DNA from: Vicinamibacterales bacterium
GTDB lineage: Bacteria > Acidobacteriota > Vicinamibacteria > Vicinamibacterales > UBA2999
DNA length: 64,000 nucleotides
Assembly: GCA_035537775.1 (NCBI GenBank)
Contig: DATLLQ010000053.1
Span: forward strand, 19,521 to 83,520
Reading direction: 5' to 3'
In this document: piece after piece, positions 14,374 to 60,643 of the stretch
Position numbering within the stretch: position 1 is the stretch's first letter
Layout of the letters: each line of letters opens with the position of its first letter
Translations under genes and position numbers: made by a program
The notes under the pieces: model-generated
Database searches by the model: none
What the model was told of the DNA's origin: nothing
The model's input: the letters and a program-made list of their open reading frames with translations, nothing else

Positions 14374-15219
14374 TCAGACAGAATCCATGAAATTGCGCTC
14401 GGCGCGTGTGAACAGCTCGAGGCCGACCAATACCAGTCCGACCATGAGGATGCCGCTCAACACCAGATCCTGGGCGTCGACGACGCCGACGCCGAGAAAT
14501 GCCCGGCGCAGGCCTTCGAACACGGGAGTCAGCGGATTGAGACGCGACACCCATGTCAGCGACGACGGAACCGACGACAACGGGTAGATGACGGGTGTCA
14601 GATACATCATCAACTGCAAGCCAAACGCGACGGCGTGCCGAAGATCGCGATACTTGCTAGTCATTGCACAGACGATGATGCCTCCAGCGAGTCCGTATCC
14701 GGCGAGGATGGCCAGCATCAGCGGGGCGGCGGCGACCCAGGCAGTGAAATGGACGTCCGCACCGGACAGCCGATAGAACGCGAGCGTCGCCAGGAACAGC
14801 AACAGTTGAATGCTGAACGCAATCGCGCAGGACGCCACCGCCGCCAACGGAATCACCAGCCGGTGGAAATAGACTTTCCCCAGGATCGATGCGTTCGTGA
14901 TGAATGTCTTGGACGTGTTGTCGAGGCAATTCGCGAAGTACGCCCACGCGATCGTCCCCAGCATGTAGAACAACACCGGCGGAATGCCATCCGTCGACAG
15001 CTGGGCGATGCGGCCGAACACGACCGTGAAGACCAGCGTCGTCGACAGAGGTTGCAGGATGTGCCAGGCGGGTCCGAGAATGGTCTGCTTGTAGACCGCG
15101 ACAAAATCCCGCCAGACGAACAGCGCGATCAGCTCGCGATACCGCCACAGCTGGCGCAACCGCCAGTTGAACCAGCCGCCGCTCGGTTCGATAACCGTCT
15201 CGAATGGGCGCGTCGTCAC
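14374..15219 (-). CDS. ABC-2 type glycan-export permease (Wzm/TagG-like)
   Basis: The N-terminus WRLRQLWRYRELIALFVWRDFVAVYKQTILGPAWHILQPL is followed by about 6 TM helices. The gene lies directly upstream of the ATPase. Confidence 0.9.
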   Translation of the reverse strand: MTTRPFETVIEPSGGWFNWRLRQLWRYRELIALFVWRDFVAVYKQTILGPAWHILQPLSTTLVFTVVFGRIAQLSTDGIPPVLFYMLGTIAWAYFANCLDNTSKTFITNASILGKVYFHRLVIPLAAVASCAIAFSIQLLLFLATLAFYRLSGADVHFTAWVAAAPLMLAILAGYGLAGGIIVCAMTSKYRDLRHAVAFGLQLMMYLTPVIYPLSSVPSSLTWVSRLNPLTPVFEGLRRAFLGVGVVDAQDLVLSGILMVGLVLVGLELFTRAERNFMDSV

Positions 15220-38504: not shown

Positions 38505-38536
38505 GTCCACCTCCGATCCTTCGGACTACGGTGGAC
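38505..38536 (+). repeat. Nested hairpin containing a degenerate REP-like unit (TCCGA-TCCT-TCGGA-CTACG)
   Basis: The sequence is GTCCACC-TCCGATCCTTCGGACTAC-GGTGGAC, read directly. Confidence 0.35.
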
Positions 38537-48048: not shown

Positions 48049-48056
48049 ATATATGC

Positions 48057-48081
48057 GGCACCCCTAAAGGGGTGCCCTACG
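48057..48081 (+). repeat. REP-type element GGCACCCC-TAAA-GGGGTGCC-CTACG
   Basis: Read directly in the korA/korB spacer. It is followed by a partial unit, AGGGCGCCCTACG, at 48085-48097. Confidence 0.8.
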
Positions 48082-48092
48082 TAAAGGGCGCC

Positions 48093-49889
48093 CTACGCTG
48101 CTTTATCCAGTCTGGCCTTGACGCCTGAAATCACGTGCTGCGCGCTCATCGGGAAGCCGCCGTAGTACCGCACCGACTCCATCTTGTCGATCGACAGGCC
48201 CGTCTCGAGCTGGAGCAGACTGCGCAGCTGCGCGTCGCGGTTCTGCTCGACGACGAACGTGAGGTCGTGCGATTCGATGAACTTCGCCACGTCGTCCCCG
48301 AAGGGGAAGCTGCGGACGCGCATGTAGTCGAGCGCGATGCCTTCTTTCGCCAGCAGGTCCAGCGCCTCGATGCACGCGGCATGGCAGCCGCCGACGGTCA
48401 ATATGGCCAGCTTCGTGCCCGGAGTCTGGCGGATGATCGGCGCCGGCAGCGATTTCGTGGCGCGCTGAATCTTCCGGTCGATGCGGTCGACGACCTCGAG
48501 GTATTCCTCGGCGTCCTCCGTATAGCCGCCGTACTTGTTGTGGCCGGAGCCTCTCGTGAAGAACGCGCCCCTCGGGTGCGTGCCGGGCAGCGTGCGATAC
48601 GGGATCCCGTCGCCGTCCACGTCGAGGTAGCGATAGAAGTTCTTCGCCTTCTCGAGCTGCTCCGCTGTGAGCACCTTGCCGCGATCGGGCTTGCGGCTGT
48701 CGTCCCACACCAGCTTCGGCACCATCCAGTCGTTCATCCCGATGTCGAGATCGGTCAGCACGAACACCGGCGTCTGGAACCGCTCGGCATAGTCGAATGC
48801 CTTCGAGGCCAGCTCGAACGCCTCTCGCGGATCCGACGGATAGAGACAGATGTGCCGCGTGTCGCCGTGCGACGCATAGGCGGCCATCATTAGGTCGCCC
48901 TGCTGCGTGCGGGTCGGCATGCCGGTTGACGGTCCGGTGCGCTGCACGTCGAAAATCACCGCCGGGACTTCGCCGTAGTAGGCAAGGCCGATGAACTCGT
49001 TCATCAGCGAGATGCCGGGACCCGAGGTGGATGTGAAGGCGCGGGCGCCGGCCCAGCCGGCGCCGATCACCATGCCGACGGCGGCGAGCTCGTCTTCCGC
49101 CTGGAGGATCGCGAAGCGATTCTTCTTGGTCTCGGGATCCTGGCGGTACTTCATGCAGAAGCCGCGGAAGGCGTCCATCAACGAGGTCGACGGCGTGATC
49201 GGATACCAGGCGGCAACGGTCGCGCCGGCGTAGAGACAGCCGAGCGCTGCCGACGTATTGCCGTCGATGAGGATCGCGTCCTTGGTCTTGTCGAGCGGCT
49301 CGAGGTGGATCGGCAGCGGGCAGGACAGGTTCTTCAGCGCGTACTGATACCCGAGGTCCACCGCCTTCTGGTTGGAGTCCATCAGCGCCTGCTTCTTGCC
49401 GAACTTCTCCTTCAGCAGCGCGCGGATGACGTCCTGGTCGATCTTCATCAGCGCCGCGAGCGCGCCGACATACGCGATGTTCTTCATGAGGATGCGCTCG
49501 CGCACGCCCTTGAAGCTCGCGTTGCACATCTCCGCCAGCGGCACGCCCAGGTAGGTGACGTCCGGCCGCTTCAGGCGATCGTCGAGTGGCCACGACGAGT
49601 CATACAGCAGCCATCCGCCGCCTCGCACCTCGGCCACGTCCTTGTCGTAGGTCGCGGCGTTCAGCGCCACCATCAGATCGAAGTCCGGCGTGCGGGCGGT
49701 GTAGCCGTCCTTGTTGACCCGGATCTCGTACCAGGTGGGCAGCCCCTGGATGTTCGACGGGAAGACGTTCTTGCCAGTGACCGGCACACCCATCCGGAAG
49801 ATGGCCTGCATCAGGAGACTGTTGGCCGATGCGGACCCGGTTCCGTTGGCAGTGGCGATCTTGAAGGCGAAGTCGTTAACTCGGCTCAT
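48093..49889 (-). CDS. korA: 2-oxoacid:ferredoxin oxidoreductase alpha subunit
   Basis: A 598-aa protein with the N-terminus FKIATANGTGSASANSLLMQAIF and the domain order typical of KorA. Confidence 0.9.
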   Translation of the reverse strand: MSRVNDFAFKIATANGTGSASANSLLMQAIFRMGVPVTGKNVFPSNIQGLPTWYEIRVNKDGYTARTPDFDLMVALNAATYDKDVAEVRGGGWLLYDSSWPLDDRLKRPDVTYLGVPLAEMCNASFKGVRERILMKNIAYVGALAALMKIDQDVIRALLKEKFGKKQALMDSNQKAVDLGYQYALKNLSCPLPIHLEPLDKTKDAILIDGNTSAALGCLYAGATVAAWYPITPSTSLMDAFRGFCMKYRQDPETKKNRFAILQAEDELAAVGMVIGAGWAGARAFTSTSGPGISLMNEFIGLAYYGEVPAVIFDVQRTGPSTGMPTRTQQGDLMMAAYASHGDTRHICLYPSDPREAFELASKAFDYAERFQTPVFVLTDLDIGMNDWMVPKLVWDDSRKPDRGKVLTAEQLEKAKNFYRYLDVDGDGIPYRTLPGTHPRGAFFTRGSGHNKYGGYTEDAEEYLEVVDRIDRKIQRATKSLPAPIIRQTPGTKLAILTVGGCHAACIEALDLLAKEGIALDYMRVRSFPFGDDVAKFIESHDLTFVVEQNRDAQLRSLLQLETGLSIDKMESVRYYGGFPMSAQHVISGVKARLDKAA

Positions 49890-49937
49890 CTACTCTCTGG
49901 ACGCTCGTCTCGGAGCTCCTCGCGGTGAACATCCCGG

Positions 49938-51728
49938 TTACACCGCCACAGTCGCCGGCACGACCGAATCCGCGTGCGGTATCAGCACCGCAAACTTCCG
50001 CATGTCCCACGCATAGGTCGGGCACCGCTCGGCACAGAGGCCGCAGTGCAGGCAGATGTTTTCGTCCTTCACCATGATGCGCCCGGTCTGCTTCAGCCCG
50101 CCAGATGCGAACAGCGGCTGTTCCGTATTCAGCGCCGGCGTTTTGACGTTGCTCCGCAACTCGTTCTCGTCTGCGTTGGGAATGATCGCCAGGCAGTCAA
50201 CGGGACAGATATCGATGCACGCATCGCACTCGATGCAGAGCGAGTCGGTGAAGTGCGTCTCTACGTCGCAGTTGAGGCAGCGTTCGACCTCATGCGCGGT
50301 CTGCTCGGCCGTGAAGCCAAGCTCAACTTCGGTATTGAGGCTCTTGAACCGCGTCACCAGATCGACGTGCGTCATCTTCTGGCGTGCGACGGGGTCGTAG
50401 TTGTTGCTGTACGACCACTCGTGCAGCCCCATCTTCGTGCTCGTCAGCGTCATGCCCGGCGAGGGGCGCTCGGTGACGGGAATGTCCTGACAGTAGTTGT
50501 GGATCGAGATGGCCGCCTGGTGGCCGTGCTCGACGGCCCAGATGATGTTCTGCGGGCCGAACGCGGCGTCGCCGCCGAAGAACACGCCCGGACGCGTGGA
50601 CATGAACGTCGTCTTATCCACGACCGGCATGTCCCACTTGCCGAACTCCAGGCCCATGTTGCGCTCGATGAACGGAAACGCGTTGTCCTGCCCGATCGCC
50701 AGCACAACTGTGTCGCACGGGATGATCTCGCGACCGATCGTCTCCTGCTGGAGCTTCCCGTCCACCTCGACCGACTTGAACTTGTCGAACTCCATGCCCG
50801 TCAGCTTCCCGTTCTCGACGATGAAGCGGATCGGCTGGAGGTTCTCGACGATCTCGACGTTCTCTTCTTCGGCGTCTTCCAGCTCCCACGGTGACGCCTT
50901 GAAGTACTTCCGCGTCTTGCGAGCGATGACCTTGACGTCGGTGGCGCCGAGCCGCTTGGCCGAGCGGCAGCAGTCCATCGCGGTGTTGCCGACGCCGATG
51001 ATCAGCACGCGCTTGCCGACAGACTCGATGTGGCCGAAGTGCACCGACTCGAGCCATTCGATGCCGATGAAGATCTGATCCGTGTCGTGCCGGCCCGGGA
51101 TCTCGAGCTCCTTGCCCTTCGGCGCCCCGCTGCCGACGAACACCGCGTCGTACTCCTTGGAATCGAGAAGCCCCTTCAGGCTCTCGACAGGCGTGTTGTA
51201 GCGGACGTCAACGCCCATGTCGACGATGTAGCCGATCTCTTCGTCGAGGACCTGCTCGGGGAGGCGGAAGGCGGGGATGTTGATCCGCATGAGGCCGCCG
51301 GGCTTCGACAGCTTCTCAAATACGGTGACCTGGTAACCAAGCGGCATCAGGTCGTTGGCTACCGTCAGCGACGCCGGACCCGCGCCGATCAGCGCGACCT
51401 TCTTCCCGTTCTTCTTCGCCGGGGCCGTCGGCAGCAGGTGTTTGACCTCGTCGCGATGGTCGGCGGCCACGCGTTTGAGGCGGCAGATCGCCACTGGCTT
51501 CCCGTCCACGCGCGTGCGCCGGCAGGCAGGTTCACAGGGCCGATCGCACGTACGGCCAAGAATTCCTGGGAAAACGTTCGATTCGCGATTGAGGAGGTAG
51601 GCGTCGGTGAATCGTCCCTGGGCTATCAGCCGGATGTATTCCGGCACGTTGGTATGCGCCGGACACGCCCATTGGCAATCGACGACACGGTGGTAGTACG
51701 TCGGATTCCCGACATCCGTTGGATTCAT
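49938..51728 (-). CDS. GltD-like FAD/NAD(P)H oxidoreductase fused to a C-terminal 2x[4Fe-4S] ferredoxin domain
   Basis: From ORF 49938..51887, with the start moved to MNPTDVGNPTYYHRV (ATG 51726-51728). Motifs include an N-terminal Fe-S Cys cluster (CDRPCEPAC), VALIGAGPASL, and C-terminal CLNCD...CIECDACIDICP and CLHCGLCAERCP. Confidence 0.85.
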   Translation of the reverse strand: MNPTDVGNPTYYHRVVDCQWACPAHTNVPEYIRLIAQGRFTDAYLLNRESNVFPGILGRTCDRPCEPACRRTRVDGKPVAICRLKRVAADHRDEVKHLLPTAPAKKNGKKVALIGAGPASLTVANDLMPLGYQVTVFEKLSKPGGLMRINIPAFRLPEQVLDEEIGYIVDMGVDVRYNTPVESLKGLLDSKEYDAVFVGSGAPKGKELEIPGRHDTDQIFIGIEWLESVHFGHIESVGKRVLIIGVGNTAMDCCRSAKRLGATDVKVIARKTRKYFKASPWELEDAEEENVEIVENLQPIRFIVENGKLTGMEFDKFKSVEVDGKLQQETIGREIIPCDTVVLAIGQDNAFPFIERNMGLEFGKWDMPVVDKTTFMSTRPGVFFGGDAAFGPQNIIWAVEHGHQAAISIHNYCQDIPVTERPSPGMTLTSTKMGLHEWSYSNNYDPVARQKMTHVDLVTRFKSLNTEVELGFTAEQTAHEVERCLNCDVETHFTDSLCIECDACIDICPVDCLAIIPNADENELRSNVKTPALNTEQPLFASGGLKQTGRIMVKDENICLHCGLCAERCPTYAWDMRKFAVLIPHADSVVPATVAV

Positions 51729-51741
51729 GCGGTAGAGCTTA

Positions 51742-51747
51742 ATTATA
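51742..51747 (-). promoter_or_regulatory. Consensus -10 hexamer TATAAT 13 nt upstream of the ATG
   Basis: The minus strand reads cccTATAATtaagctctaccgcATG. No SD lies between the hexamer and the ATG. Confidence 0.4.
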
Positions 51748-51856
51748 GGGCACGGTGCCGAAATGCGCGGCTTTCGCGCGAGAACACAAAGATATACGGT
51801 GCGTCGGGGGATTCCGCTTACGCACGATGTGCGCCATCGTGATGGCTGCTTCCGTA

Positions 51857-51894
51857 CAAGAAAAGGGCGCGAAGAACAGTTGTTCATCGCGCCC
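51857..51894 (-). terminator. Rho-independent terminator downstream of sodA
   Basis: The minus strand reads GGGCGCGATGAACAACTGTTCTTCGCGCCC followed by TTTTCTTGT. The stem is long and almost perfect. Confidence 0.7.
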
Positions 51895-51905
51895 GCGTCT
51901 GTGAT

Positions 51906-51929
51906 GTCCGGCTAAAGCCGGACGCTACG
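51906..51929 (+). repeat. REP-type element GTCCGGC-TAAA-GCCGGAC-GCTACG
   Basis: Read directly, 9 nt after the sodA stop. Confidence 0.8.
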
Positions 51930-51937
51930 AATGCCGG

Positions 51938-52534
51938 TTACAGGGCCTTGTTGACCTCGGCCCAGTTGACGACGTTCCACCACGCGCCGATGTAGTCGGG
52001 GCGGCGGTTCTGATACTTCAAGTAGTAGGCGTGCTCCCAGACGTCGAGGCCGAGAACCGCCTTCTTCCCATCCATCAGCGGGTTGTCCTGATTCGGCGTG
52101 CTGGCGATCGACAGCTTTCCACCGTCGTTGAGCAGCCACACCCACCCGCTGCCGAAGCGTCCGGCGCCGGCCTTCGCCCACTCTTCCTTGAACTTGTCGA
52201 AGCTGCCGAACGCCGCATTGATCCCGTCGGCAACCTTTCCGGTTGGCGCGCCGCCGGCATTCGGCGCCATCCACTTCCAGAACATGCTGTGGTTCCAGTG
52301 CCCGCCGCCGTTGTTGCGTACCGCGGTGCGGATGGCTTCCGGAATGCTGTTGATGCTCTTGCAGAGATCCTCGACCGTCTTGCCCTGCAGGTCGGGATGG
52401 TTCTGCAATGCGTTGTTCAAATTGGTGACATACGTCTGATGATGCTTCCCGTGATGAATCTGCATCGTCTGCGCGTCGATGTGCGGTTCGAGCGCGGCGT
52501 GGTCATACGGGAGCGGGGGAAGTTCGTGCGCCAT
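51938..52534 (-). CDS. sodA: Superoxide dismutase, Mn-type by sequence signature
   Basis: From ORF 51938..52591, with the start moved to [17 protein letters not shown] (ATG 52532-52534) after GGAGGA. The motifs [26 protein letters not shown] and DVWEHAYY are present. Confidence 0.95.
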
Positions 52535-52547
52535 TCGTCCTCCGAAG

Positions 52548-52569
52548 GAGCGGATCGTCGGATCCGCTC
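52548..52569 (-). promoter_or_regulatory. Perfect 9-bp stem hairpin in the sodA leader
   Basis: The sequence GAGCGGATC-cgac-GATCCGCTC lies immediately upstream of the SD. Its role is unknown. Confidence 0.3.
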
Positions 52570-52627
52570 GAACCGGACGATGGTACTTCACACCACGAAC
52601 TGGCGCGAATAAACGGAAGAGATAGCG

Positions 52628-53089
52628 TCAGTCCTGAAGCTTCAGGTGCATGAAGACGCTGAACCCGTTGTCCTGGTAGGAACCGAAGCGTCCGCACTCC
52701 TGAAAGCCGACGCTGCGATACAGCGTCTGCGCCGGCGCGAATGCCGGGTGATTGCCGGTTTCGAGGAACAGCTCACGATATCCGCGCTGACGGGACACCT
52801 GAAGGAGGTGATTGAGCAGCGCTCTTCCTGTCCCCTGCCGGCGAAGGCGCGCCGGTGTCCGCATCGACTTCACTTCGCCCTGGGATGGCGACAGCTCCTT
52901 CAGGGCCGCGCAACCGAGTAAGGCCCCGTCTTCCCATGCGGTCCAGAGAGTGACGTCTGGCGCCCGTAACTTGCTCGCGTCGAAAGCGAAGACGCATTCG
53001 GGCGGCGACAGCTCGTGCATGTTCCTGAGATGCTCCTCGAGCAACGCGAGCACCTCAGCTCTGGATACATCGTCGAGCTCGATCCGCAT
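52628..53089 (-). CDS. GNAT-family N-acetyltransferase
   Basis: From ORF 52628..53245, with the start moved to MRIELDDVSRAEV (ATG 53087-53089). The acetyl-CoA loop is RLRRQGTGRALLNHLL. Confidence 0.8.
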   Translation of the reverse strand: MRIELDDVSRAEVLALLEEHLRNMHELSPPECVFAFDASKLRAPDVTLWTAWEDGALLGCAALKELSPSQGEVKSMRTPARLRRQGTGRALLNHLLQVSRQRGYRELFLETGNHPAFAPAQTLYRSVGFQECGRFGSYQDNGFSVFMHLKLQD

Positions 53090-53105
53090 GCGGAGTAAGG
53101 TCCGT

Positions 53106-53597
53106 CTACCAGGGACCGGTGTGAGTCTTGATCGCTCCGGACAGCAGCGCCTTGCGAACGTCCTCAATCGTCTTGAAGCCGCCAGGTGCGGCACCGCCCC
53201 ACTCGAATTGAGTCGCATCGGGCGTCCAGCGAAAGAGCAGCACATGCCATGTGGATGTACCGCCGCCGCGCTCGTAATACACCAGGCAATGGAAATCGTT
53301 CGAGCACCCGGCTGCGATCATCCGGCGGCTCGGGAGCTGTCGATTGACCGCCACGCCGGCCTTCTGAAAATCGGCTCCCGGCTCGGCGATGTCGAGCGTG
53401 CCGCCGAACATCGGCATCAGCCGATCGCGCACCCCAAGTGGCAGGCCCCGGATCGACGTGATGATGTCGAAGCGTTCGTTCTGCAGGTGAGTGCGCAAAG
53501 CCGGGGCCAGCGGGCCTGAGGCCGTCTGGCCCGTAGCAACGACGGCCGGCAAAAGGCTGACGGCGAGCGCGATGAGGAGTCGTGTGCGCATGCGCAT
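53106..53597 (-). CDS. Secreted hypothetical protein
   Basis: From ORF 53106..54227, with the start moved to MRMRTRLLIALAVSLLPAVVATG (ATG 53595-53597). A signal peptide is present. Confidence 0.6.
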   Translation of the reverse strand: MRMRTRLLIALAVSLLPAVVATGQTASGPLAPALRTHLQNERFDIITSIRGLPLGVRDRLMPMFGGTLDIAEPGADFQKAGVAVNRQLPSRRMIAAGCSNDFHCLVYYERGGGTSTWHVLLFRWTPDATQFEWGGAAPGGFKTIEDVRKALLSGAIKTHTGPW

Positions 53598-53603
53598 GTT
53601 TTT

Positions 53604-53628
53604 GGTCCGGCTGAAGCCGGACGCTACG
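53604..53628 (+). repeat. REP-type element GGTCCGGC-TGAA-GCCGGAC-GCTACG overlapping the nadA stop codon
   Basis: Read directly. The CTA of the tail (53624-53626) is the reverse complement of the nadA TAG stop. Confidence 0.8.
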
Positions 53629-54760
53629 TAATAGACAGCATCCGATCGAGCGCGACCTTGTTCCAGTGCTTCTGTTCGTCGGAAACGACGATGCGATTGG
53701 GAACGCGGCCTTCGACCAGTTCCTCGAGAATCCAGAGCAGGTGGTTCGGCGACACGCGGAACATCGTCGAGCACAGGCAGCCGAACTGGTCGAGCGAGAC
53801 GACGGTCTTGTCCGGCGCCACTTCGTGCGCTAGCCGGTTGACCAGGTGCACCTCGGTGCCGACGGCCCATACCGAACCCGGAGCGCTCTCGCGAACGGTC
53901 TTCAGGATGTACTCGGTGCTCCCGTTGTCGTCGGAGGCCTGAACGACATCCCACGGCACCTCGGGATGGACAATGACGCGGATCCCCGGGTGCTGCTTCC
54001 GGACGGCCTCGATCTGCTTCGCGGTGAAACGCTCGTGCACGGAGCAGTGGCCCTTCCAGAGGATCATCTTCGCGCGCTTGACGTCTTCGGGATCGAGGCC
54101 GCCGAACATCTCGTTGGGATCCCACACGACCATCTGATCGAGCGGCACTCCCAGCTTGTAGGCGGTGTTGCGCCCGAGGTGCTGGTCGGGCATGAAGAGA
54201 ATCCGCTCTCCGCGCTCGAATCCCCACTTGATCGTGGCCGCCGCGTTTGACGACGTGCAGACGGTGCCGCCGCGTTCGCCGACGAACGACTTAATCGACG
54301 CGGCCGAGTTGATGTAGGTCACCGGCACGATGCCGGGGATGCCCATCTGCTGCAGCTCTTCCCAGCACGTCTCGAGCTGATCGGGATCGACCATGTCGGC
54401 CATCGAGCAGCCTGCGGCAAGGTCCGGCAGGATCACCTGCTGATGCGGCGCGGAGAGAATGTCCGCGCTCTCGGCCATGAAGTGGACGCCGCAGAACACG
54501 ATGTAGTCGGCGTCGGGATGCTTCGCGACCTGGCGTGCGAGGCGGAACGAATCGCCGGTGTAGTCGGCGAACTTGATCACCTCGTCGCGCTGATAGTGAT
54601 GGCCGAGAATGACGAGCCGCTTGCCGAGCGTCGCGCGAGCCGCGGCAATGCGGGCGTCCATCTCCACGTCAGACAGGCCGAGGTACTTCTCGGGGAGCGC
54701 CTGACGCTCGGAGATGTGGTCCTTCTCGAACTCGGTCAGCAGCGGAATGATTGAGCCCAT
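53624..54760 (-). CDS. nadA: Quinolinate synthase NadA
   Basis: The whole 378-aa sequence is characteristic of NadA, including VILGHHYQRDEV, VHFMAESADIL, ILWKGHCSVHERF and VGTEVHLVNRL. Confidence 0.95.
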   Translation of the reverse strand: MGSIIPLLTEFEKDHISERQALPEKYLGLSDVEMDARIAAARATLGKRLVILGHHYQRDEVIKFADYTGDSFRLARQVAKHPDADYIVFCGVHFMAESADILSAPHQQVILPDLAAGCSMADMVDPDQLETCWEELQQMGIPGIVPVTYINSAASIKSFVGERGGTVCTSSNAAATIKWGFERGERILFMPDQHLGRNTAYKLGVPLDQMVVWDPNEMFGGLDPEDVKRAKMILWKGHCSVHERFTAKQIEAVRKQHPGIRVIVHPEVPWDVVQASDDNGSTEYILKTVRESAPGSVWAVGTEVHLVNRLAHEVAPDKTVVSLDQFGCLCSTMFRVSPNHLLWILEELVEGRVPNRIVVSDEQKHWNKVALDRMLSIT

Positions 54761-54885
54761 CGGCAGCCTGCACTCCGGTCACGTCCGTGTGACATTGTGA
54801 AACTTTTCGCAATCTCCGGACGTGAAAAAGCCCAAACCCCTCAGCCGGCTATTGCCCCGTGGGATTTGGACTGTCTGAATTATAA
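54761..54885 (-). promoter_or_regulatory. Structured nadA leader: -10 TTATAAT, a terminator-like hairpin with a U5 run, then a long hairpin abutting the SD
   Basis: The minus strand reads cgTTATAATtc...CCAAAUCCC-acggggcaauagccggcuga-GGGGUUUGG-GCUUUUU-CACGUCCG...CGGACGUG-accGGAGugcaggcugccgAUG. Confidence 0.5.
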
Positions 54886-54926
54886 CGTTTGGCGGCGGCG
54901 GACGATAGCCGGGGCGGTTGCCCGCC

Positions 54927-55610
54927 CTAAAATGGCGTGAAACTCAGGCGAATATCACCCAGGCAGACAGCGGAGTCGGTGGCAGGTAGTCCATTCCCCC
55001 ACCAGAGACCCCCGCTCCCTGTGGCCTCGATTTTTCCATTCTGGGCCACCGCATTGGCGTTGCCTCCAATCTCGAGTAAGCGGTCTTCCTGGGTCAACAC
55101 CTCCCAGATTTGGGCGCCCCTCCGATCGTCATCATTCGACATGGTCACGGAGAGTGTTGATCCACCGGCAGGCGTCATGAGGAACTGATTACAGATGCCG
55201 GTCCCCGGCAACCGGAGATCGGCACAGCCGATGCCGTTTCCCGGACTGATATCCGCGAGGAACGTGGCCTCGTAGAGCCGGACCACATAACCGTTTCCGT
55301 GATTGAGGACGTCCGCAGAGTACGTCCGACGTTTCGCATGCGCCGGTACAGTCTCGCATCGCTCAGCCGCGGCAGGCTCGATGACGACATCAAGCGCATA
55401 GCGCCCGACGAGCGGATCAGCCGATGGCGGCGGCGGTGCAGGCAACGGCACAAAGATCCGGTTCAGCGCTGAGACTGGCGTCCCCGTCGGCGGAGGGCTC
55501 GGAGCCGGAATCGGCGTCGTCACCGTGGGAGCAGCCGGAGTCGAGGAACTCCCGCATCCCAGCACCAACAGCAAGAGGGTCCCGACGAGTGTCCGTGGGG
55601 GTCGACACAT
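54927..55610 (-). CDS. Lipoprotein, hypothetical
   Basis: The signal/lipobox LLLLVLGC is followed by a Pro/Thr-rich linker and a domain with four Cys. Confidence 0.6.
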   Translation of the reverse strand: MCRPPRTLVGTLLLLVLGCGSSSTPAAPTVTTPIPAPSPPPTGTPVSALNRIFVPLPAPPPPSADPLVGRYALDVVIEPAAAERCETVPAHAKRRTYSADVLNHGNGYVVRLYEATFLADISPGNGIGCADLRLPGTGICNQFLMTPAGGSTLSVTMSNDDDRRGAQIWEVLTQEDRLLEIGGNANAVAQNGKIEATGSGGLWWGNGLPATDSAVCLGDIRLSFTPF

Positions 55611-55703
55611 CCCTGGGCTCCTTTCGACAACACGAGGGGCTAAGGGGAATCGGACGACCGGGGCTTCACGCCGCCTGGCAGTGAAGGGGAACCTACGAAC
55701 GCG

Positions 55704-56831
55704 TCAGGCGTGCAGTGTCGCGGGCTCGGAAACCTGGGGAACGTTGACGATGTTGTAAAACGTATCGCGCTCGAGCGGCTCACGGCCGGCAGCGCGGACG
55801 AGGCGTGTCAGTGCCGTGGTGGTCATTCCCTCGGGCGTCGGGGAACCAGCCATGTGGTAAATCTTCTCTTCCTGCACGGTCCCGTCGAGATCGTCGACGC
55901 CAAACCATAGCGACGTCTGCGCCACCTCCAGCCCGGTCGCAATCCAGAACGCCTTGATGTGCGGAATGTTGTCGAGCATCAGCCGCGATACGGCGTGGAC
56001 GCGCAGCGAGTCGGTTCCGCTCGGCGCCGGCAGCTTGCGCATCTGGTTGTTGTCGGGATGGAACGCCAGAGGGATGAACGCCTGGAAGCCGCCGGTCTCG
56101 TCCTGCAGCGCGCGCGAGCGCAGCATGTGATCGACACGCTCCTCCATCGTCTCGATATGCCCGTAGAGCATTGTGACGTTGGTCTTGAGCCCCAGTTGAT
56201 GGGCGAGCCGGTGAATGGAGAGATATCTATCGGCGTCTGCCTTGTCGTGGCAGATCTTGCGGCGCACGCGCTCGGCGAAGATCTCGGCGCCGCCGCCGGG
56301 CAGCGAGTCGAGGCCGGCATCGATCAGCTCGCGCAGCACCTGCTCGTCGGTCATCCCGTACAAATCTGAGAAGTACGCGATCTCAACAGCCGTGAAGCAC
56401 TTGAGATGAATGCCGGGACGGATCCGTTTGAAGCCGCGCAGAAGATCCGTGTAGTAGCTGAACGGCAAGTGCGGGTTCAGGCCGTTGACGATGTGCAGCT
56501 CGGTCAGCGGCTGATTCGCACGCCGTCGAAGCTTGTCCCACGCCTCTTCGAGCGACATCGTGTAGGCCTCGGGCATCCCGGCCTGCAGCCGCGAAAAAGA
56601 GCAGAACAGACAGGTCGCCTCGCAGACGTTTGTCGGCTCGAGGCGGAGGTTGTAGTTGAAGTAGGTGCGCGCGCCGTGGCGCTTCTCGCGCTCGCGGTTC
56701 GCGAGCCAGCCGACGGCGAGGAGGTCGGGCGCGTCGAACAGGCGCACGCCATCCTCGAGCGTGAGCCGTTCTCCAGCCTGCAGCTTCTCGTCGATTGCGG
56801 CCAATCCGGCCGCCTGAAGGCGCGATTTCAT
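55704..56831 (-). CDS. Radical SAM enzyme of the futalosine menaquinone pathway (MqnE/MqnC family)
   Basis: The motif EPTNVCEATCLFCSF (CxxxCxxC) is present, with CofH/Mqn-like length and layout. mqnD and mqnB lie in the same window. The start is taken as ATG 56829-56831, because the ORF-track start at 56876 is a TTG. Confidence 0.8.
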   Translation of the reverse strand: MKSRLQAAGLAAIDEKLQAGERLTLEDGVRLFDAPDLLAVGWLANREREKRHGARTYFNYNLRLEPTNVCEATCLFCSFSRLQAGMPEAYTMSLEEAWDKLRRRANQPLTELHIVNGLNPHLPFSYYTDLLRGFKRIRPGIHLKCFTAVEIAYFSDLYGMTDEQVLRELIDAGLDSLPGGGAEIFAERVRRKICHDKADADRYLSIHRLAHQLGLKTNVTMLYGHIETMEERVDHMLRSRALQDETGGFQAFIPLAFHPDNNQMRKLPAPSGTDSLRVHAVSRLMLDNIPHIKAFWIATGLEVAQTSLWFGVDDLDGTVQEEKIYHMAGSPTPEGMTTTALTRLVRAAGREPLERDTFYNIVNVPQVSEPATLHA

Positions 56832-56980
56832 GTGAAAAAGAAACCGGGTTTGATTTTCCAGCCCAAACAGGGACAATCAAACCCGGCTTCAATTGTAGCC
56901 GGGTGAACAGGGAAGTGGGTGCGAAGCCCACGCGGTCCCGCCACTGTAAGCGGAGAGATTCGGTCGCACGTCACTGCGGT

Positions 56981-57005
56981 GGCACTCCTGAAGGGGTGCT
57001 CTACG
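56981..57005 (+). repeat. REP-type element GGCACTCC-TGAA-GGGGTGCT-CTACG
   Basis: Read directly. It lies inside the riboswitch variable region. Confidence 0.75.
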
Positions 57006-57011
57006 AGATTT

Positions 57012-57036
57012 CGTAGGACGCGCCTTCAGGCGCGTC
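57012..57036 (-). repeat. REP-type element, inverted: CGTAG-GACGCGCC-TTCA-GGCGCGTC
   Basis: Read directly. With the element at 56981-57005 it forms a tail-to-tail doublet around the palindrome CTACGAgattTCGTAG. Confidence 0.75.
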
Positions 57037-57133
57037 ACGCGGGAAGACAACCCGAATCGGCAAAGACTCCGTGAGCCAGGAGACCTCTCATCCGGCGTCG
57101 TCCAGCTCTCGGCGCGAAGGACGCCGCACGGAC

Positions 57134-57979
57134 ATGACGCTCTCCGCCACACAGCTCTCGTACAGCTATCGCCAGGGTCCGGCTAAAGCCGGACGCTACG
57201 CCAGAAAAACAGGTCCGGCTGAAGCCGGACATTACGCCGGGGACTTCGCGCTGCGCGACATCAGCGTCAGCGTCGCGCCCGGTTCGCTGACAGGCCTCCT
57301 CGGGCCGAACGGCTGCGGCAAGACGACGCTGCTGAAGCTGCTCTCCGGCGTCCTCAAGCCGGAGCTCGGCTCCGTTCGACTTGGCGAACGCGAGATGCGC
57401 CTGCTCTCCGCGCGGGCCGTCGCACAGCAGATCGCGGTGGTCCCCCAGGAAACGCATCCGGCGTTCGACTTCACGGTCATGGAGATGGTGCTGATGGGAC
57501 GCCATCCGCATCTCGGCGCGTTTCAGCTCGAGGGACCCAGTGATCTTGCGATCGCCCGCGAGTCGCTGATCGCTACGGGCACCGCCCACCTTGCGGGCCG
57601 CGCCTACATGACGCTGAGCGGCGGCGAAAAGCAGCGCGTCGTCATTGCCAGCGCGCTGGCGCAGAAGCCAAAGGTTCTCCTGCTCGACGAGCCGACCGCC
57701 TCGCTCGACCTCGGCTATCAGCTCGAAATCGCAGCGCTCCTCAAACAGCTCAATCGGGAACGCGGTGTGACGATGGTGCTGGCGACGCATGATCTGAACC
57801 TGGCGGCGTCCGTGTGCGACACGCTCGTGCTCGTGCGCGAAGGCCGGGTGCTGATGCAGGGGCCGACGAACGATGTCCTGACGTCCGCCACCGTCCAGCA
57901 GCTCTACGGCGTGATCGCCGACGTCACATTCCACGAGCGCGCGGGACACATGACGGTCATCCCCGTCCGCCGGCAATGA
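57134..57979 (+). CDS. btuD: Corrinoid/iron-complex ABC transporter ATP-binding protein (BtuD/FecE family)
   Basis: From ORF 57071..57979, with the start moved to MTLSATQLSYSY (ATG 57134), because the GTG at 57071 lies inside the B12 box. The motifs GPNGCGKTTLLK and LSGGEKQRV...LLLDEPTASLD are present. Confidence 0.85.
   Translation: MTLSATQLSYSYRQGPAKAGRYARKTGPAEAGHYAGDFALRDISVSVAPGSLTGLLGPNGCGKTTLLKLLSGVLKPELGSVRLGEREMRLLSARAVAQQIAVVPQETHPAFDFTVMEMVLMGRHPHLGAFQLEGPSDLAIARESLIATGTAHLAGRAYMTLSGGEKQRVVIASALAQKPKVLLLDEPTASLDLGYQLEIAALLKQLNRERGVTMVLATHDLNLAASVCDTLVLVREGRVLMQGPTNDVLTSATVQQLYGVIADVTFHERAGHMTVIPVRRQ
57176..57200 (+). repeat. REP-type element GGTCCGGC-TAAA-GCCGGAC-GCTACG inside btuD codons 15-23
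   Basis: Read directly. It translates in frame as GPAKAGRYA. Confidence 0.8.
57212..57236 (+). repeat. REP-type element GGTCCGGC-TGAA-GCCGGAC-ATTACG inside btuD codons 27-35
   Basis: Read directly. It translates in frame as GPAEAGHYA. Confidence 0.8.
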
Positions 57980-59040
57980 GCGACGCGATCAGCGACGCCA
58001 TGAGGGACACTGTCGCTCTGGACAACGTCGCGGCCGTCCGGCCGATCAGGGCGCGTCTTGTCGCCACCGTCGCGGGATTCGGCGCCGTGACAGTGGCCGT
58101 CTGTCTCCTTGCGCCGCTCGTCGGCAGCACGCAGATCAGCCTGACGCGCGTCTTCGATCGGTCGATCCCGTTCGCCAACAACGTCGACGCACAGATCTTC
58201 TTCATCGCCCGGCTGCCACGAGTGCTCTCGGGAGCGCTGGTCGGCGCGGCCCTGGCCGCGGCGGGCGTTGTCTTCCAGGCACTTCTGCGCAATCCACTCG
58301 CCACGCCGTTCACGTTGGGTGTCTCGGCGGGGGCGTCGCTGGGCGCAATGCTGGTGATCATCCTCGGCGTGAACATCGCCGCCGGCTCACTCCCGGCGGT
58401 GCCTCTCGCCAGCCTGGCCGGAGCATCGATCGCGACCGCAATCGTCTACTGGCTGGCGACGCCTTACCGGCGCGCGATGTCGACGTCGGTGCTGCTGCTC
58501 GCGGGGGTGACGCTCAATTCGTTCTTCTCGGCGCTCATCATGTTCGTGCAGTACATCGCCGACTTCTCGCAGGCCTATCGCGCTGCGCGCTACCTGATGG
58601 GCGACCTGGACATCGGCAGCTTCGATCCGCTGGTGGCCGCGCTCCCGCTGGTGACCGTCGCGTTCGTTGCGTTTGCGACGCTGCCCTCCGCCCTCAACAT
58701 GCTGAGCCTCGGGCCGGATGCCGCGGCAACCCGCGGTGTTGACGTGGTCCGTGCGCAGCGGCTCGCCTTCTTCAGTGCCTCGCTCGCAACGAGCGCGGCG
58801 GTGTCACTGGCGGGGCCGATCGGCTTCGTTGGGATCGTGGTGCCGCACCTTGTCCGGTTGATGGTGGGCGTCGATCACCGCATCGTGCTGCCGGCGTCAA
58901 CCTTGTTCGGCGCGGCATTCCTCGTCGTGTGCGACCTGGCCGCGCGAACCCTGCTCGCGCCGATCGAAATCCCCGTGGGCGTCGTCACCGCAATTATCGG
59001 AGGGCCGTTCTTCCTATGGCTGCTCGTACGAAGAAGCTGA
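57976..59040 (+). CDS. btuC: FecCD-family ABC permease (BtuC-like)
   Basis: From ORF 57814..59040, with the start moved to ATG 57976 (ATGA overlap with the btuD stop). It has about 9-10 TM helices and the C-terminal motif GVVTAIIGGPFFLWLL. Confidence 0.9.
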   Translation: MSDAISDAMRDTVALDNVAAVRPIRARLVATVAGFGAVTVAVCLLAPLVGSTQISLTRVFDRSIPFANNVDAQIFFIARLPRVLSGALVGAALAAAGVVFQALLRNPLATPFTLGVSAGASLGAMLVIILGVNIAAGSLPAVPLASLAGASIATAIVYWLATPYRRAMSTSVLLLAGVTLNSFFSALIMFVQYIADFSQAYRAARYLMGDLDIGSFDPLVAALPLVTVAFVAFATLPSALNMLSLGPDAAATRGVDVVRAQRLAFFSASLATSAAVSLAGPIGFVGIVVPHLVRLMVGVDHRIVLPASTLFGAAFLVVCDLAARTLLAPIEIPVGVVTAIIGGPFFLWLLVRRS

Positions 59041-59930
59041 TCGCGGCTATCGCGGTTCTGATCGCGTGTGCGATCAGCGTGAGCGCTCTCCAGGTCCGCC
59101 TGAAGGCGGACACTACGACCGCGCAACGTGGGGTCGGCGCGAATGCCCGCATCGTGTCGCTCGTGCCGGCGCTCACCGAGATGTTCTTCGCCATCGGTGC
59201 TGGTCCGCAGGTTGTCGGCATCGGCAACTTCGATAACTTCCCTCCAGAGGTCAAGACGCTGCCGCGCGTCGGAGCGCTGCTCAACCCCGACACGGAGCGC
59301 ATCCTCGCTCTTCGTCCGACTCTGGTCGCCACCTACGGCTCGCAGACCGATCTCAACGAGCAGTTCGCGCGCGCTGGCATCAAGACGTTCGTGTACCGGC
59401 ACGGCGGCATCAGCACCATCTTCCAGACGATGCGCGATCTTGGCGATGCGACGGGTCATCGGGCGCAGGCCGATCGAGTGGTGCGCGACCTTCAGGCACG
59501 TCTCGACGCTGTGCGCACCAGAGTGAAGGGACTGCAGAAGCCGCGCGTCCTGCTCGTCATCGGACGCCAGCCGAAGGCGCTGCGCGAGATCTACGTGAGC
59601 GGCGGCCAGGGATTCCTGCACGAGATGCTCGAGATCGCCGGGGGCCAGAACGTCTTTGCCGATGTATTGCGTGAGTCGGTCCAGCCGTCGCAGGAGACTC
59701 TCATTGCCCGCAAACCGGACATCGTGATCGAAACGCACGCGGAGGGGATGTTCCAGACCTCCGACGTCAGCGGCGAGCAGGCGGTCTGGTCGGCTTTGTC
59801 CTCGCTGCCCGCGGTCCGCAATCGCCGGGTCCACGTCTTGATCGGCCAGTACCTTGTCGTGCCCGGGCCTCGGTTCGCGCAGGCGACCGAAACCCTCGCG
59901 CGAACCATTCACCCCGAAGCGTTCAAGTGA
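59016..59930 (+). CDS. btuF: Periplasmic corrinoid/siderophore-binding protein (BtuF-like), probable lipoprotein
   Basis: From ORF 58929..59930, with the start moved to MAARTKKLIAAIAVLIACA (ATG 59016). The motifs RIVSLVPALTEMFFAIG and NPDTERILALRPTLV are present. Confidence 0.85.
   Translation: MAARTKKLIAAIAVLIACAISVSALQVRLKADTTTAQRGVGANARIVSLVPALTEMFFAIGAGPQVVGIGNFDNFPPEVKTLPRVGALLNPDTERILALRPTLVATYGSQTDLNEQFARAGIKTFVYRHGGISTIFQTMRDLGDATGHRAQADRVVRDLQARLDAVRTRVKGLQKPRVLLVIGRQPKALREIYVSGGQGFLHEMLEIAGGQNVFADVLRESVQPSQETLIARKPDIVIETHAEGMFQTSDVSGEQAVWSALSSLPAVRNRRVHVLIGQYLVVPGPRFAQATETLARTIHPEAFK
59093..59117 (+). repeat. REP-type element GGTCCGCC-TGAA-GGCGGAC-ACTACG inside btuF
   Basis: Read directly. 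It translates in frame as (Q)VRLKADTT, just after the signal peptide/lipobox. Confidence 0.8.
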
Positions 59931-60643
59931 AGATTCTGCTTTCGTGGAGCTCCGGCAAGGACAGCGCCTGGGCGCTGCACGTCCTGAACCGCCAGTATCC
60001 GGGTGCCGTTGCCGCGCTATTGACGACGGTCAACGAAGCGATGGATCGGGTGGCCATGCACGGCGTGAGGCGTGAGGTGCTCGAAGCGCAGGCGCGCGCT
60101 GCCCGCCTTCCGCTCCGCATCGTGCCCATACCGCACCCGTGTCCAAACGAGATCTACGAGCAGCGCATGGGCGCGGCGGTGCAGACGGCCGTCGCCGACG
60201 GTTTCACTCACGTTGCGTTCGGCGATCTTTTTCTGCAGGACGTTCGCCAGTACCGCGAGGAGCGGCTGGCTTCGTCAGGGTTGACCCCGCTCTTCCCGCT
60301 CTGGGACATCCCGACTCGCGCGCTCGCGCGCGAGATGGTGGCCGGCGGACTCCGCGCGCGCATCGCCTGCGTGGACACCCGCGTGCTCGACGCCCGGTTC
60401 GTCGGCCGCCTCTTTGACGACTCACTGCTCGACGACCTGCCGGCATCGATTGATCCGTGCGGCGAGAACGGCGAGTTCCACACCTGCGTGCACGATGGAC
60501 CGATGTTTCACGAGCTGATGGAGGTGGAGACGGGACATCTCGAGTCGCGAGAGCCATTCGTCTGGGCCGACCTGACTCTACGAGAGGGAGCCGCCACCCC
60601 GTCGACTCGCAGGGCACCCCTTTCAAGTGTGCCGGAACCGTGA
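59927..60643 (+). CDS. PP-loop ATP pyrophosphatase, Dph6/MJ0570-like (adenine nucleotide alpha hydrolase superfamily)
   Basis: The GTGA overlap couples it to btuF. The N-terminus is MKILLSWSSGKDSAWAL (an SGGKDS-type PP-loop). The motif GENGEFHTCV is present. Confidence 0.75.
   Translation: MKILLSWSSGKDSAWALHVLNRQYPGAVAALLTTVNEAMDRVAMHGVRREVLEAQARAARLPLRIVPIPHPCPNEIYEQRMGAAVQTAVADGFTHVAFGDLFLQDVRQYREERLASSGLTPLFPLWDIPTRALAREMVAGGLRARIACVDTRVLDARFVGRLFDDSLLDDLPASIDPCGENGEFHTCVHDGPMFHELMEVETGHLESREPFVWADLTLREGAATPSTRRAPLSSVPEP
60608..60633 (-). repeat. Degenerate REP-type element, inverted: CGCAG-GGCACCCCT-TTCA-AGTGTGCC
   Basis: Read directly. It encodes the last ~10 residues of the PP-loop protein. 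Confidence 0.5.

Follow-up and report, generated by a model that had tools for sequence, protein, structure and literature searches.

GTAG-tagged REP elements of several families in a Vicinamibacterales genome and their probable spread by RAYT transposases

A 64,000-nt stretch of DNA (C53:19521-83520, i.e. positions 19,521 to 83,520 of contig DATLLQ010000053.1, assembly GCA_035537775.1; hereafter the window) from a Vicinamibacterales metagenome-assembled genome (MAG) carries, between its positions 48057 and 60633, a series of short GC-rich hairpins located among two pyruvate:ferredoxin oxidoreductase (POR)-type genes, sod, nadA and a cobalamin-uptake operon. We interpret these hairpins as GTAG-tagged repetitive extragenic palindromic (REP) elements of 24-27 nt, each composed of a GC-rich hairpin and an unpaired (C)GTAG, that have been spread in trans by REP-associated tyrosine transposases (RAYTs), a reading to which we assign a probability of roughly 0.9. 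In the window, eight of the units are clear, consisting of a GC-rich stem of 7-8 bp, a TGAA or TAAA loop (TTCA on the opposite strand), the return stem, 0-1 nt and CTACG; another unit is decayed, and there is additionally a half unit (window coordinates; classes A and B are defined in the genome-wide census below):

48057-48081, + strand: class B unit, GGCACCCC TAAA GGGGTGCC CTACG, in the 44-bp spacer of the two POR-type genes (Pfam)
48082-48097, + strand: half unit consisting of loop, 3' arm and tail (TAAA GGGCGCC CTACG), adjoining the unit at 48057-48081
51906-51929, + strand: class A unit, GGC subtype, GTCCGGC TAAA GCCGGAC GCTACG, intergenic, 8 nt 3' of the sod stop
53605-53628, + strand: class A unit, GGC subtype, GTCCGGC TGAA GCCGGAC GCTACG
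56981-57005, + strand: class B-derived unit, GGCACTCC TGAA GGGGTGCT CTACG, with two G.T wobble pairs
57012-57036, - strand: class B-derived unit, CGTAG GACGCGCC TTCA GGCGCGTC
57177-57200, + strand: class A unit, GTCCGGC TAAA GCCGGAC GCTACG, first of a tandem pair
57213-57236, + strand: class A unit, stem as in 57177-57200, TGAA loop, tail ATTACG instead of CTACG, second of the tandem pair
59094-59117, + strand: class A unit, GCC subtype, GTCCGCC TGAA GGCGGAC ACTACG
60608-60633, - strand: decayed class B-like unit (tail CGCAG, loop of 6 nt, stem mismatched at two positions), located at the 3' end of the open reading frame (ORF) 59927-60643

The initial annotation of the window had described at least nine units of one architecture with an invariant tail, and had listed nine places; eight of these are clear and the ninth, at 60608, is inverted and degenerate, as had been stated, but the tail is not invariant, the unit at 57213 being an exception. 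The decayed unit was missed by a consensus scan allowing up to three mismatches, and its membership is weak. A possible relative suggested at 38512 was rejected as a member, as it is a different, nested hairpin (outer stem GGTCCACC/GGTGGAC, inner 5-bp hairpin, and CTACG) that matches no class. The units at 56981-57005 (+) and 57012-57036 (-) form a tail-to-tail doublet, in which GACGCGCC at 57013 is a class B copy that has diverged and, when compared with its orthologue in the congeneric genome G008, shows a compensatory change. The tag coincides with a stop codon at two of the sites: the CTA of the half unit (48093-48095) is the TAG stop of a POR alpha-like gene (48093-49889, -), and that of the unit at 53605-53628 (53624-53626) is the TAG stop of nadA (53624-54760, -).

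The studied genome (G000; 4.48 Mb in 298 contigs, 65% GC, approximately 75% complete) was scanned for the same architecture, and a genome-wide excess over chance was apparent: 206 perfect-stem matches were obtained against approximately 18 expected from a third-order Markov simulation, while a reversed control pattern gave no match in 41 genomes. As a relaxed scan permitting one mismatch in the hairpin added mostly noise, copies were instead collected by consensus searches for each class, allowing up to three mismatches. These searches identified 152 copies of class A (G GTCCGSC TRAA GSCGGAC R CTAC G), 70 of class B (GGCRCCCC TRAA GGGGYGCC CTACG) and 31 of class C (AGGCCGACC TDAA GGTCGGCCT CTAC), amounting to 249 copies after removal of overlaps, which are spread on most contigs; only these three classes were abundant in a de novo census of all GC-rich hairpins of G000. 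The stems are 7-9 bp and the loops 4 nt in length, with minimum free energies of -11.7 to -17.4 kcal/mol (RNA parameters), and the stem is perfect in 174 of the 249 copies. The CTAC positions are conserved at 85-100% in classes A and B and at 83-100% in class C. The flanks of the G000 copies hold no information beyond 1 nt, no T-run and no target-site duplication; since they are random beyond one base, the unit is therefore a discrete element of 24-27 nt and not a piece of a larger duplication. The units were also rejected as terminators, given that they possess neither a T-run nor a conserved flank.

Pairing within the stems is preserved through covariation. Class A stem positions 6/13 are G-C in 81 copies, C-G in 59 and mismatched in six (Fisher 2e-33), and class B stem positions 4/17 are A-T in 35 copies, G-C in 27 and A.C in five (5e-14); two compensatory subtypes thus exist within a family. 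The inverted class A pairs are GCC+GGC heterodimers in five of five cases. Adjacent pairs number approximately 20 among 230 sites, 11 of them inverted, and most units are single; the arrangement typical of REP doublets forming hairpins (REPINs), i.e. most units as inverted pairs with a short spacer, was not observed, the doublet at 56981-57036 being one such inverted pair. Half units, in which the 3' arm and CTAC tail are present and the 5' arm is missing, account for 28 of 206 exact 3'-arm-plus-tail matches genome-wide; they often directly follow a full unit, sometimes two or three consecutively (e.g. C43:208-240 and C153:13020-13044).

The clustering within 12 kb of the window is likewise well beyond chance, as six strict and two variant units lie within 11 kb where 0.7 would be expected (Poisson, approximately 8e-7 per window). 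This cluster ranks second densest genome-wide, and the remaining 77 kb of the 88-kb contig contain no units. Of the four class A units of the window that match strictly, three carry the tail GCTACG, compared to 15 of the 152 class A copies genome-wide, and because a tail that is rare in class A (approximately 10%) recurs in this manner, the 12-kb cluster probably arose by local copying; the shared tail itself points to either local copying or local homogenisation. Within the cluster, a GNAT acetyltransferase gene plus extra DNA (approximately 1.1 kb between sod and nadA, window 52628-53597) is present only in G000; the sod-nadA interval measures 60-100 bp in most congeners and approximately 590 bp in G007 and G008.

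No RAYT gene lies within the window, as had been noted, and the sole Y1_Tnp match of the genome (PF01797, 42.5 bits) is C119:7753-8247, which encodes a 164-aa product. This product scores 109 bits against the NCBIfam equivalog NF047646 REP_Tyr_transpos ('REP-associated tyrosine transposase', cut-off 80), and its best solved relative is TnpA-REP of E. coli (4ER8, E 7e-6), with which both the HUH motif (MPDHLHLLV) and the YIxxNP tyrosine motif (RYILANPLRAGLV, carrying the catalytic Tyr, YIxxNPxxAGLV type) align. The gene is situated between inverted class C units (GTAG-AGGCCGACG..CGTCGGCCT upstream and AGGCCGACC taaa GGTCGGCCT CTAC downstream), an arrangement that, judged from its sequence, represents the classical REPtron layout. 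No further RAYT was found in G000 by tblastn with at least 20 congener RAYTs as queries. Among 12 genomes of relatives searched for Y1_Tnp, at least six, namely G003, G007, G008, G011, G022 and G037, encode small RAYTs with class A units on either side (loci including L012, L017, L018, L023, L024 and L031), the GTAG-hairpin lying upstream and the hairpin-CTAC downstream. A RAYT between class B units was located in G008:C74 (L198). The link to RAYTs that had been proposed from the GTAG-plus-hairpin layout is consequently borne out for class C in G000 and for classes A and B in its relatives.

Other RAYTs of these relatives are flanked by units with the stems GGCGGGTC, GCCGGGTCC, GGGCCGSC, ATCCGGC and TTCCGSC, and one further RAYT-flanking class, GGCGGACGT, is GTGG/CCAC-tagged; a single genus thus contains no fewer than nine stem classes that each have a RAYT of their own. 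In a RAYT tree, the proteins associated with NNCCGSC-stem units form one clade (support 88/94) and the others form separate long branches. Furthermore, genomes rich in class A have a class A-flanked RAYT, and the class A-free genomes G001 and G014 are without one. Because the RAYTs are flanked by different stem classes and their phylogeny tracks the stem class, the stem variants are discrete REP families, each with its own RAYT lineage, together with the paired subtypes inside a family; the earlier description of paired variants is thus upheld as regards pairing, but not as free variation of a single element.

It may be argued that the proximity of RAYT genes is coincidental, and that the units are miniature inverted-repeat transposable elements (MITEs) of a DDE-type insertion sequence or are moved by another enzyme, since classes A and B have no adjacent transposase in this assembly. 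However, the units display neither terminal inverted repeats beyond the hairpin nor a target-site duplication, 25 nt is far under the size of a MITE, and in congeners the units flank RAYT genes repeatedly and in a fixed orientation, with the concordance of RAYT phylogeny and stem class described above, so that such an origin seems extremely improbable. In the mechanism that we favour, Y1/HUH RAYTs would copy the units around the genome in trans. By analogy with what is established biochemically for IS200/IS605 and for TnpA-REP of E. coli, the hairpin, folded on single-stranded DNA, and its GTAG would be recognised by the RAYT, whose tyrosine would cleave there before rejoining. Insertions persist where they are harmless, namely just behind stop codons (often giving TAG), in intercistronic spacers or in a riboswitch loop, and in frame in flexible protein loops, a residence made possible by the fact that a unit can be read through in four of its six frames.

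The distribution of class A is patchy, with 0 to 349 copies across 24 congeneric genomes, and among 16 genomes from other families of the order it is present in one (G037). Public class A matches are almost all from soil MAGs of Vicinamibacterales or Acidobacteriota. In G037, class A numbers 115 units and flanks a RAYT that is intact (L018), which suggests horizontal transfer of the REP/RAYT pair or taxonomic misplacement of this genome. Exact class A units were additionally observed on MAG contigs labelled Gemmatimonadales, Bifidobacterium, Acidimicrobiia and Pyrinomonadaceae (L039, L048, L054, L075, L076, L080 and L099), and these may reflect mis-binning or transfer. A second superfamily was seen in congeners, in which GC hairpins with TGACAA/TTGTCA-type loops carry a GTGG/CCAC tag that replaces GTAG/CTAC; it flanks its own RAYT (L025 in G008, L020 in G007), and G000 contains no abundant family of it. 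In G007 such hairpins stand at the orthologues of window 59094, C185:48721, C192:62879 and C94:60184.

The position of the units relative to genes was assessed with a simple codon-usage caller made for this analysis (3727 genes, 89% coding), the calls of which are crude. On these calls, 125 of the 249 copies are intergenic, 49 overlap the 3' end of a gene, seven overlap a 5' end and 68 (27%) lie wholly within ORFs, which corresponds to an approximately threefold depletion from coding DNA, far from exclusion. The tag-derived TAG is a stop codon in 35 cases and the TGA of the loop in eight. Between co-directional genes, the median distance of an intergenic unit from the end of the preceding gene is 15 nt, and GTAG precedes the hairpin on the mRNA strand in 48 of the 68 units in this setting. 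This preference of position and orientation would be compatible with structures selected by the host (mRNA 3'-end stabilisers, terminators or gyrase sites) and not spread by a transposase, as would the observation that spacers of sister genomes hold some hairpin even though its class differs, from which a hairpin could be needed there. Such selection would nevertheless have to account for identical 25-nt sequences in approximately 250 unrelated contexts, for unconserved flanks that lack a T-run, for the canonical inverted layout of units around RAYT genes, for the patchy copy number among congeners and for at least 32 units deep within coding sequence, where a terminator is unwanted. We consider this explanation very unlikely; while some copies may possibly have acquired a host function, this cannot explain the family.

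By hand count, approximately 32 intragenic units lie at least 30 codons from both ends of the ORF with a positive coding score on both sides. Their hosts are real genes and include a class I tRNA synthetase (ValRS-like), SMC, PriA (two sites) and CoaBC, and further hosts are an acetyl-CoA synthetase family enzyme (two sites), a molybdopterin oxidoreductase, an aldehyde:ferredoxin oxidoreductase, an NYN-LOTUS protein and alanine racemase (Alr), which is 5-8 residues longer at this place than its solved homologues. Only the four open frames are used, and the in-frame peptides read VRLKADTT, GPAEAGHY, VVSGFSRT, GTPEGVPY, VGHPFRGA and VEADLQVGL. Two MetE-like paralogues (C42:55205-56443 and C113:237-1460) share two insertion positions, occupied in both by decayed inserts of classes B and A; these insertions are therefore older than the gene duplication and now evolve as coding sequence.

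In the window, the cobalamin-uptake operon holds units in both RNA and protein. A cobalamin riboswitch (56864-57106, +; Rfam RF00174, 83.4 bits) has in its peripheral variable loop a 57-nt insert, where the model has 6 nt, that corresponds to the doublet 56981-57036; in the orthologous loop, G008 likewise has a class B doublet, whereas the hairpin of G007 is class C-like and those of G004 and G013 are short and plain. The BtuD/FhuC-type ABC ATPase gene (57134-57979) reads the tandem units 57177-57236 in frame as GPAKAGRYARKTGPAEAGHYA, which adds 21 residues to the N-terminal beta-hairpin, between the first strand and the Walker A strand. Among orthologues in 23 congeners, approximately 20 are empty at this site and the insert is shared only with G007 (one and a half units) and G008 (one unit), in both cases with subtypes other than those of G000. 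A CTAYCGCCAG repeat around the first ATPase unit was considered as a target duplication and set aside, as it may be due to chance. The BtuF-like binding protein (59016-59930) reads the unit 59094-59117 in frame as VRLKADTT just after the signal peptide; this insert is found only in G000 (orthologues in 23 congeners), and the orthologous place in G007 is occupied by a different, CCAC-tagged hairpin. In the literature library searched, neither REPs of Vicinamibacteria nor REPs located within a riboswitch were the subject of any paper found.

Mobility is indicated by clean pairs of filled and empty alleles at the two PriA sites. The insert GPAKVGHYV is private to G000, its site being empty in 21 congeners, while GPAEGGHYR is also present in G008 (decayed to YPAEAGLHQ) and absent from 20 other congeners; the filled/empty pairs differ by a net +30 and +27 nt. 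Several observations weigh against spread of the units by RAYTs, or limit what may be said of it. No class A or B RAYT was detected by tblastn in this assembly, even though these classes make up 89% of the copies, so that any present-day activity in this genome is putative; the units are mostly singlets, unlike the REPIN doublets of Pseudomonas that are held to be the replicating unit; and the PriA junctions can be drawn in several ways, leaving the exact mobile unit and target fuzzy, because of which no target duplication can be claimed.

The class A and B RAYTs of G000 are either lost or located within the unassembled 25% of the genome. If they were lost, the family would be a fossil in G000, in which copies only decay or are homogenised by gene conversion. 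This would agree with the single class C RAYT of the assembly, with frameshifts or truncations in the class A RAYTs of several congeners (L023, L024 and L029) and with an exact match to consensus in only 60 of the 152 class A copies. The assembly is, however, only approximately 75% complete, contigs tend to be broken by repeats (in several of them a REP unit lies no more than a few hundred bases from the contig end), and one PriA insert and the binding-protein insert are recent, being private to G000 and nearly perfect. We regard the fossil state as possible but rather unlikely.

The comparison of orthologous sites raises a further aspect of this spread. Using 1.08 Mb of the sister genome G007, 26 G000 sites were mapped, of which 23 had a usable G007 segment; approximately 11 of the 23 are empty in G007. 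A perfect GC-rich hairpin is present at eight of the 23, compared to 2.85% of random windows (binomial 1.5e-7; the windows were not context-matched and form a crude control). Two or three of the eight belong to the same class as the G000 unit, and the rest are of another GTAG class or GTGG/CCAC-tagged; two further sites are heptamer-array palindromes. At the nadA stop, G008 has an A-GCC unit, G015 has a partial one, and G020 and G022 have class D (GGCGGGTC), with at least 14 congeners empty; the empty alleles (G011 and others) read TCG TAG, and class A and D units follow exactly that TAG. The POR spacer (48057 site), which contains class B in G000, is occupied in G008 by an ATCCGGC-class REP and in G007 by a heptamer-array palindrome. 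In the SMC loop, G000 has class A where G007 has a CCAC-tagged hairpin.

These sites suggest, tentatively, that it may be REP sites and not REP copies that are inherited, with insertion aimed at existing GTAG/hairpin sites by homing or replacement; we put this forward as a possibility of somewhat less than even probability because the random-window control is crude. If true, old units would be landing pads for new REP families. IS608 has TTAC as a pre-existing target. A general role of GTAG as pre-existing target was rejected here, as it fits the nadA stop only, and is kept as a lead; the empty alleles of the PriA sites and of the MoeA-like site in G008 contain neither GTAG nor CTAC. As a separate observation, many congeners contain long palindromes in which a tandem array of heptamers precedes its own inverted complement (GGGATCG x8 ... 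CGAATCC; CTCCCAA arrays), in the same spacers where G000 has REPs. The heptamer varies by species; examples are L180, L183-L189, L192-L194, L196 (3' of sod) and G007:C52 at approximately 14590-14680 (the orthologue of window 48049-48092), and G000 has only 15 heptamer arrays with at least five copies.

A multi-family REP/RAYT system is hereby documented in the Vicinamibacterales, which are abundant and barely cultured soil Acidobacteriota. Its identity, copy number, linkage to RAYTs, insertion polymorphism and in-frame residence are shown by the data, while single-strand cleavage, present-day activity of classes A and B, local hopping and targeting of old sites are inferred. It bears on annotation, as the units fragment MAG assemblies, give rise to ORFs that are spurious or too long, provide stop codons and insert loops of 8-21 residues into housekeeping proteins such as PriA, SMC, CoaBC, a class I tRNA synthetase, an ABC ATPase and alanine racemase. 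Moreover, the filled and empty orthologous sites constitute a natural experiment on which protein and RNA loops tolerate an insertion of 24-60 nt, and the same set can be used to test REP targeting of existing hairpin sites.

The closest known counterparts are the GTAG REPs (Di Nocera, De Gregorio & Rocco 2013, BMC Genomics 14:522, PMC3733652), exemplified by SMAG of Stenotrophomonas maltophilia and GTAG-1 of Pseudomonas, in which a GC palindrome, short and perfect, encloses a small loop and is accompanied by a GTAG that remains unpaired. In that work, several families are described per genome, with head-to-head, tail-to-tail and tandem dimers (including heterodimers) and REPtrons; the elements lie close behind genes, GTAG supplies TAG stops, and intragenic in-frame units occur in replication, repair and tRNA-synthetase genes. 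All of these features are seen in G000. The host is new, however (Acidobacteriota, Vicinamibacterales; the acidobacterium included in PMC3733652 is listed with terminal inverted repeat (TIR)-type elements only), as are the stem sequences; TGAA/TAAA loops are the norm in the G000 classes, the units are mostly singlets, the intragenic share is high (27% wholly in predicted ORFs) and one doublet resides inside a riboswitch.

The system resembles the E. coli REPs and bacterial interspersed mosaic elements (BIMEs) with their TnpA-REP (4ER8) in its Y1/HUH transposase of approximately 165 aa, its inverted REP flanks and its aligned HUH/Tyr motifs, although the similarity is distant (E 7e-6) and the REPs described here are shorter and perfect, with no BIME-like conserved linker. 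REPs of E. coli fall into two subtypes, Y and Z, that pair in dimers, and two subtypes pair in dimers here too. For the REPIN-RAYT systems of Pseudomonas, Bertels and Rainey reportedly proposed in 2011 that the inverted doublet (REPIN) is the replicating unit; the single-copy RAYT, inherited within the lineage together with its cognate flanking repeats, and the several RAYT/REP pairs per genus are alike, yet only approximately 20 of 230 sites here are doublets. Rickettsia palindromic elements (RPEs; Ogata et al. 2000, cited in PMC3733652) are, as far as the cited account of them extends, similarly palindromic repeats translated as loop peptides in housekeeping proteins, but on the same account RPEs are longer or CGTC-tagged and have no tie to a RAYT, whereas the units described here are 24-27 nt in length, GTAG-tagged and RAYT-linked. 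Viewed against these systems, the multi-family REP/RAYT system of G000 is ordinary in kind and new for this group of bacteria, and its least ordinary feature is the reuse of sites, in that the orthologous sites of sister genomes often hold a hairpin of another class.

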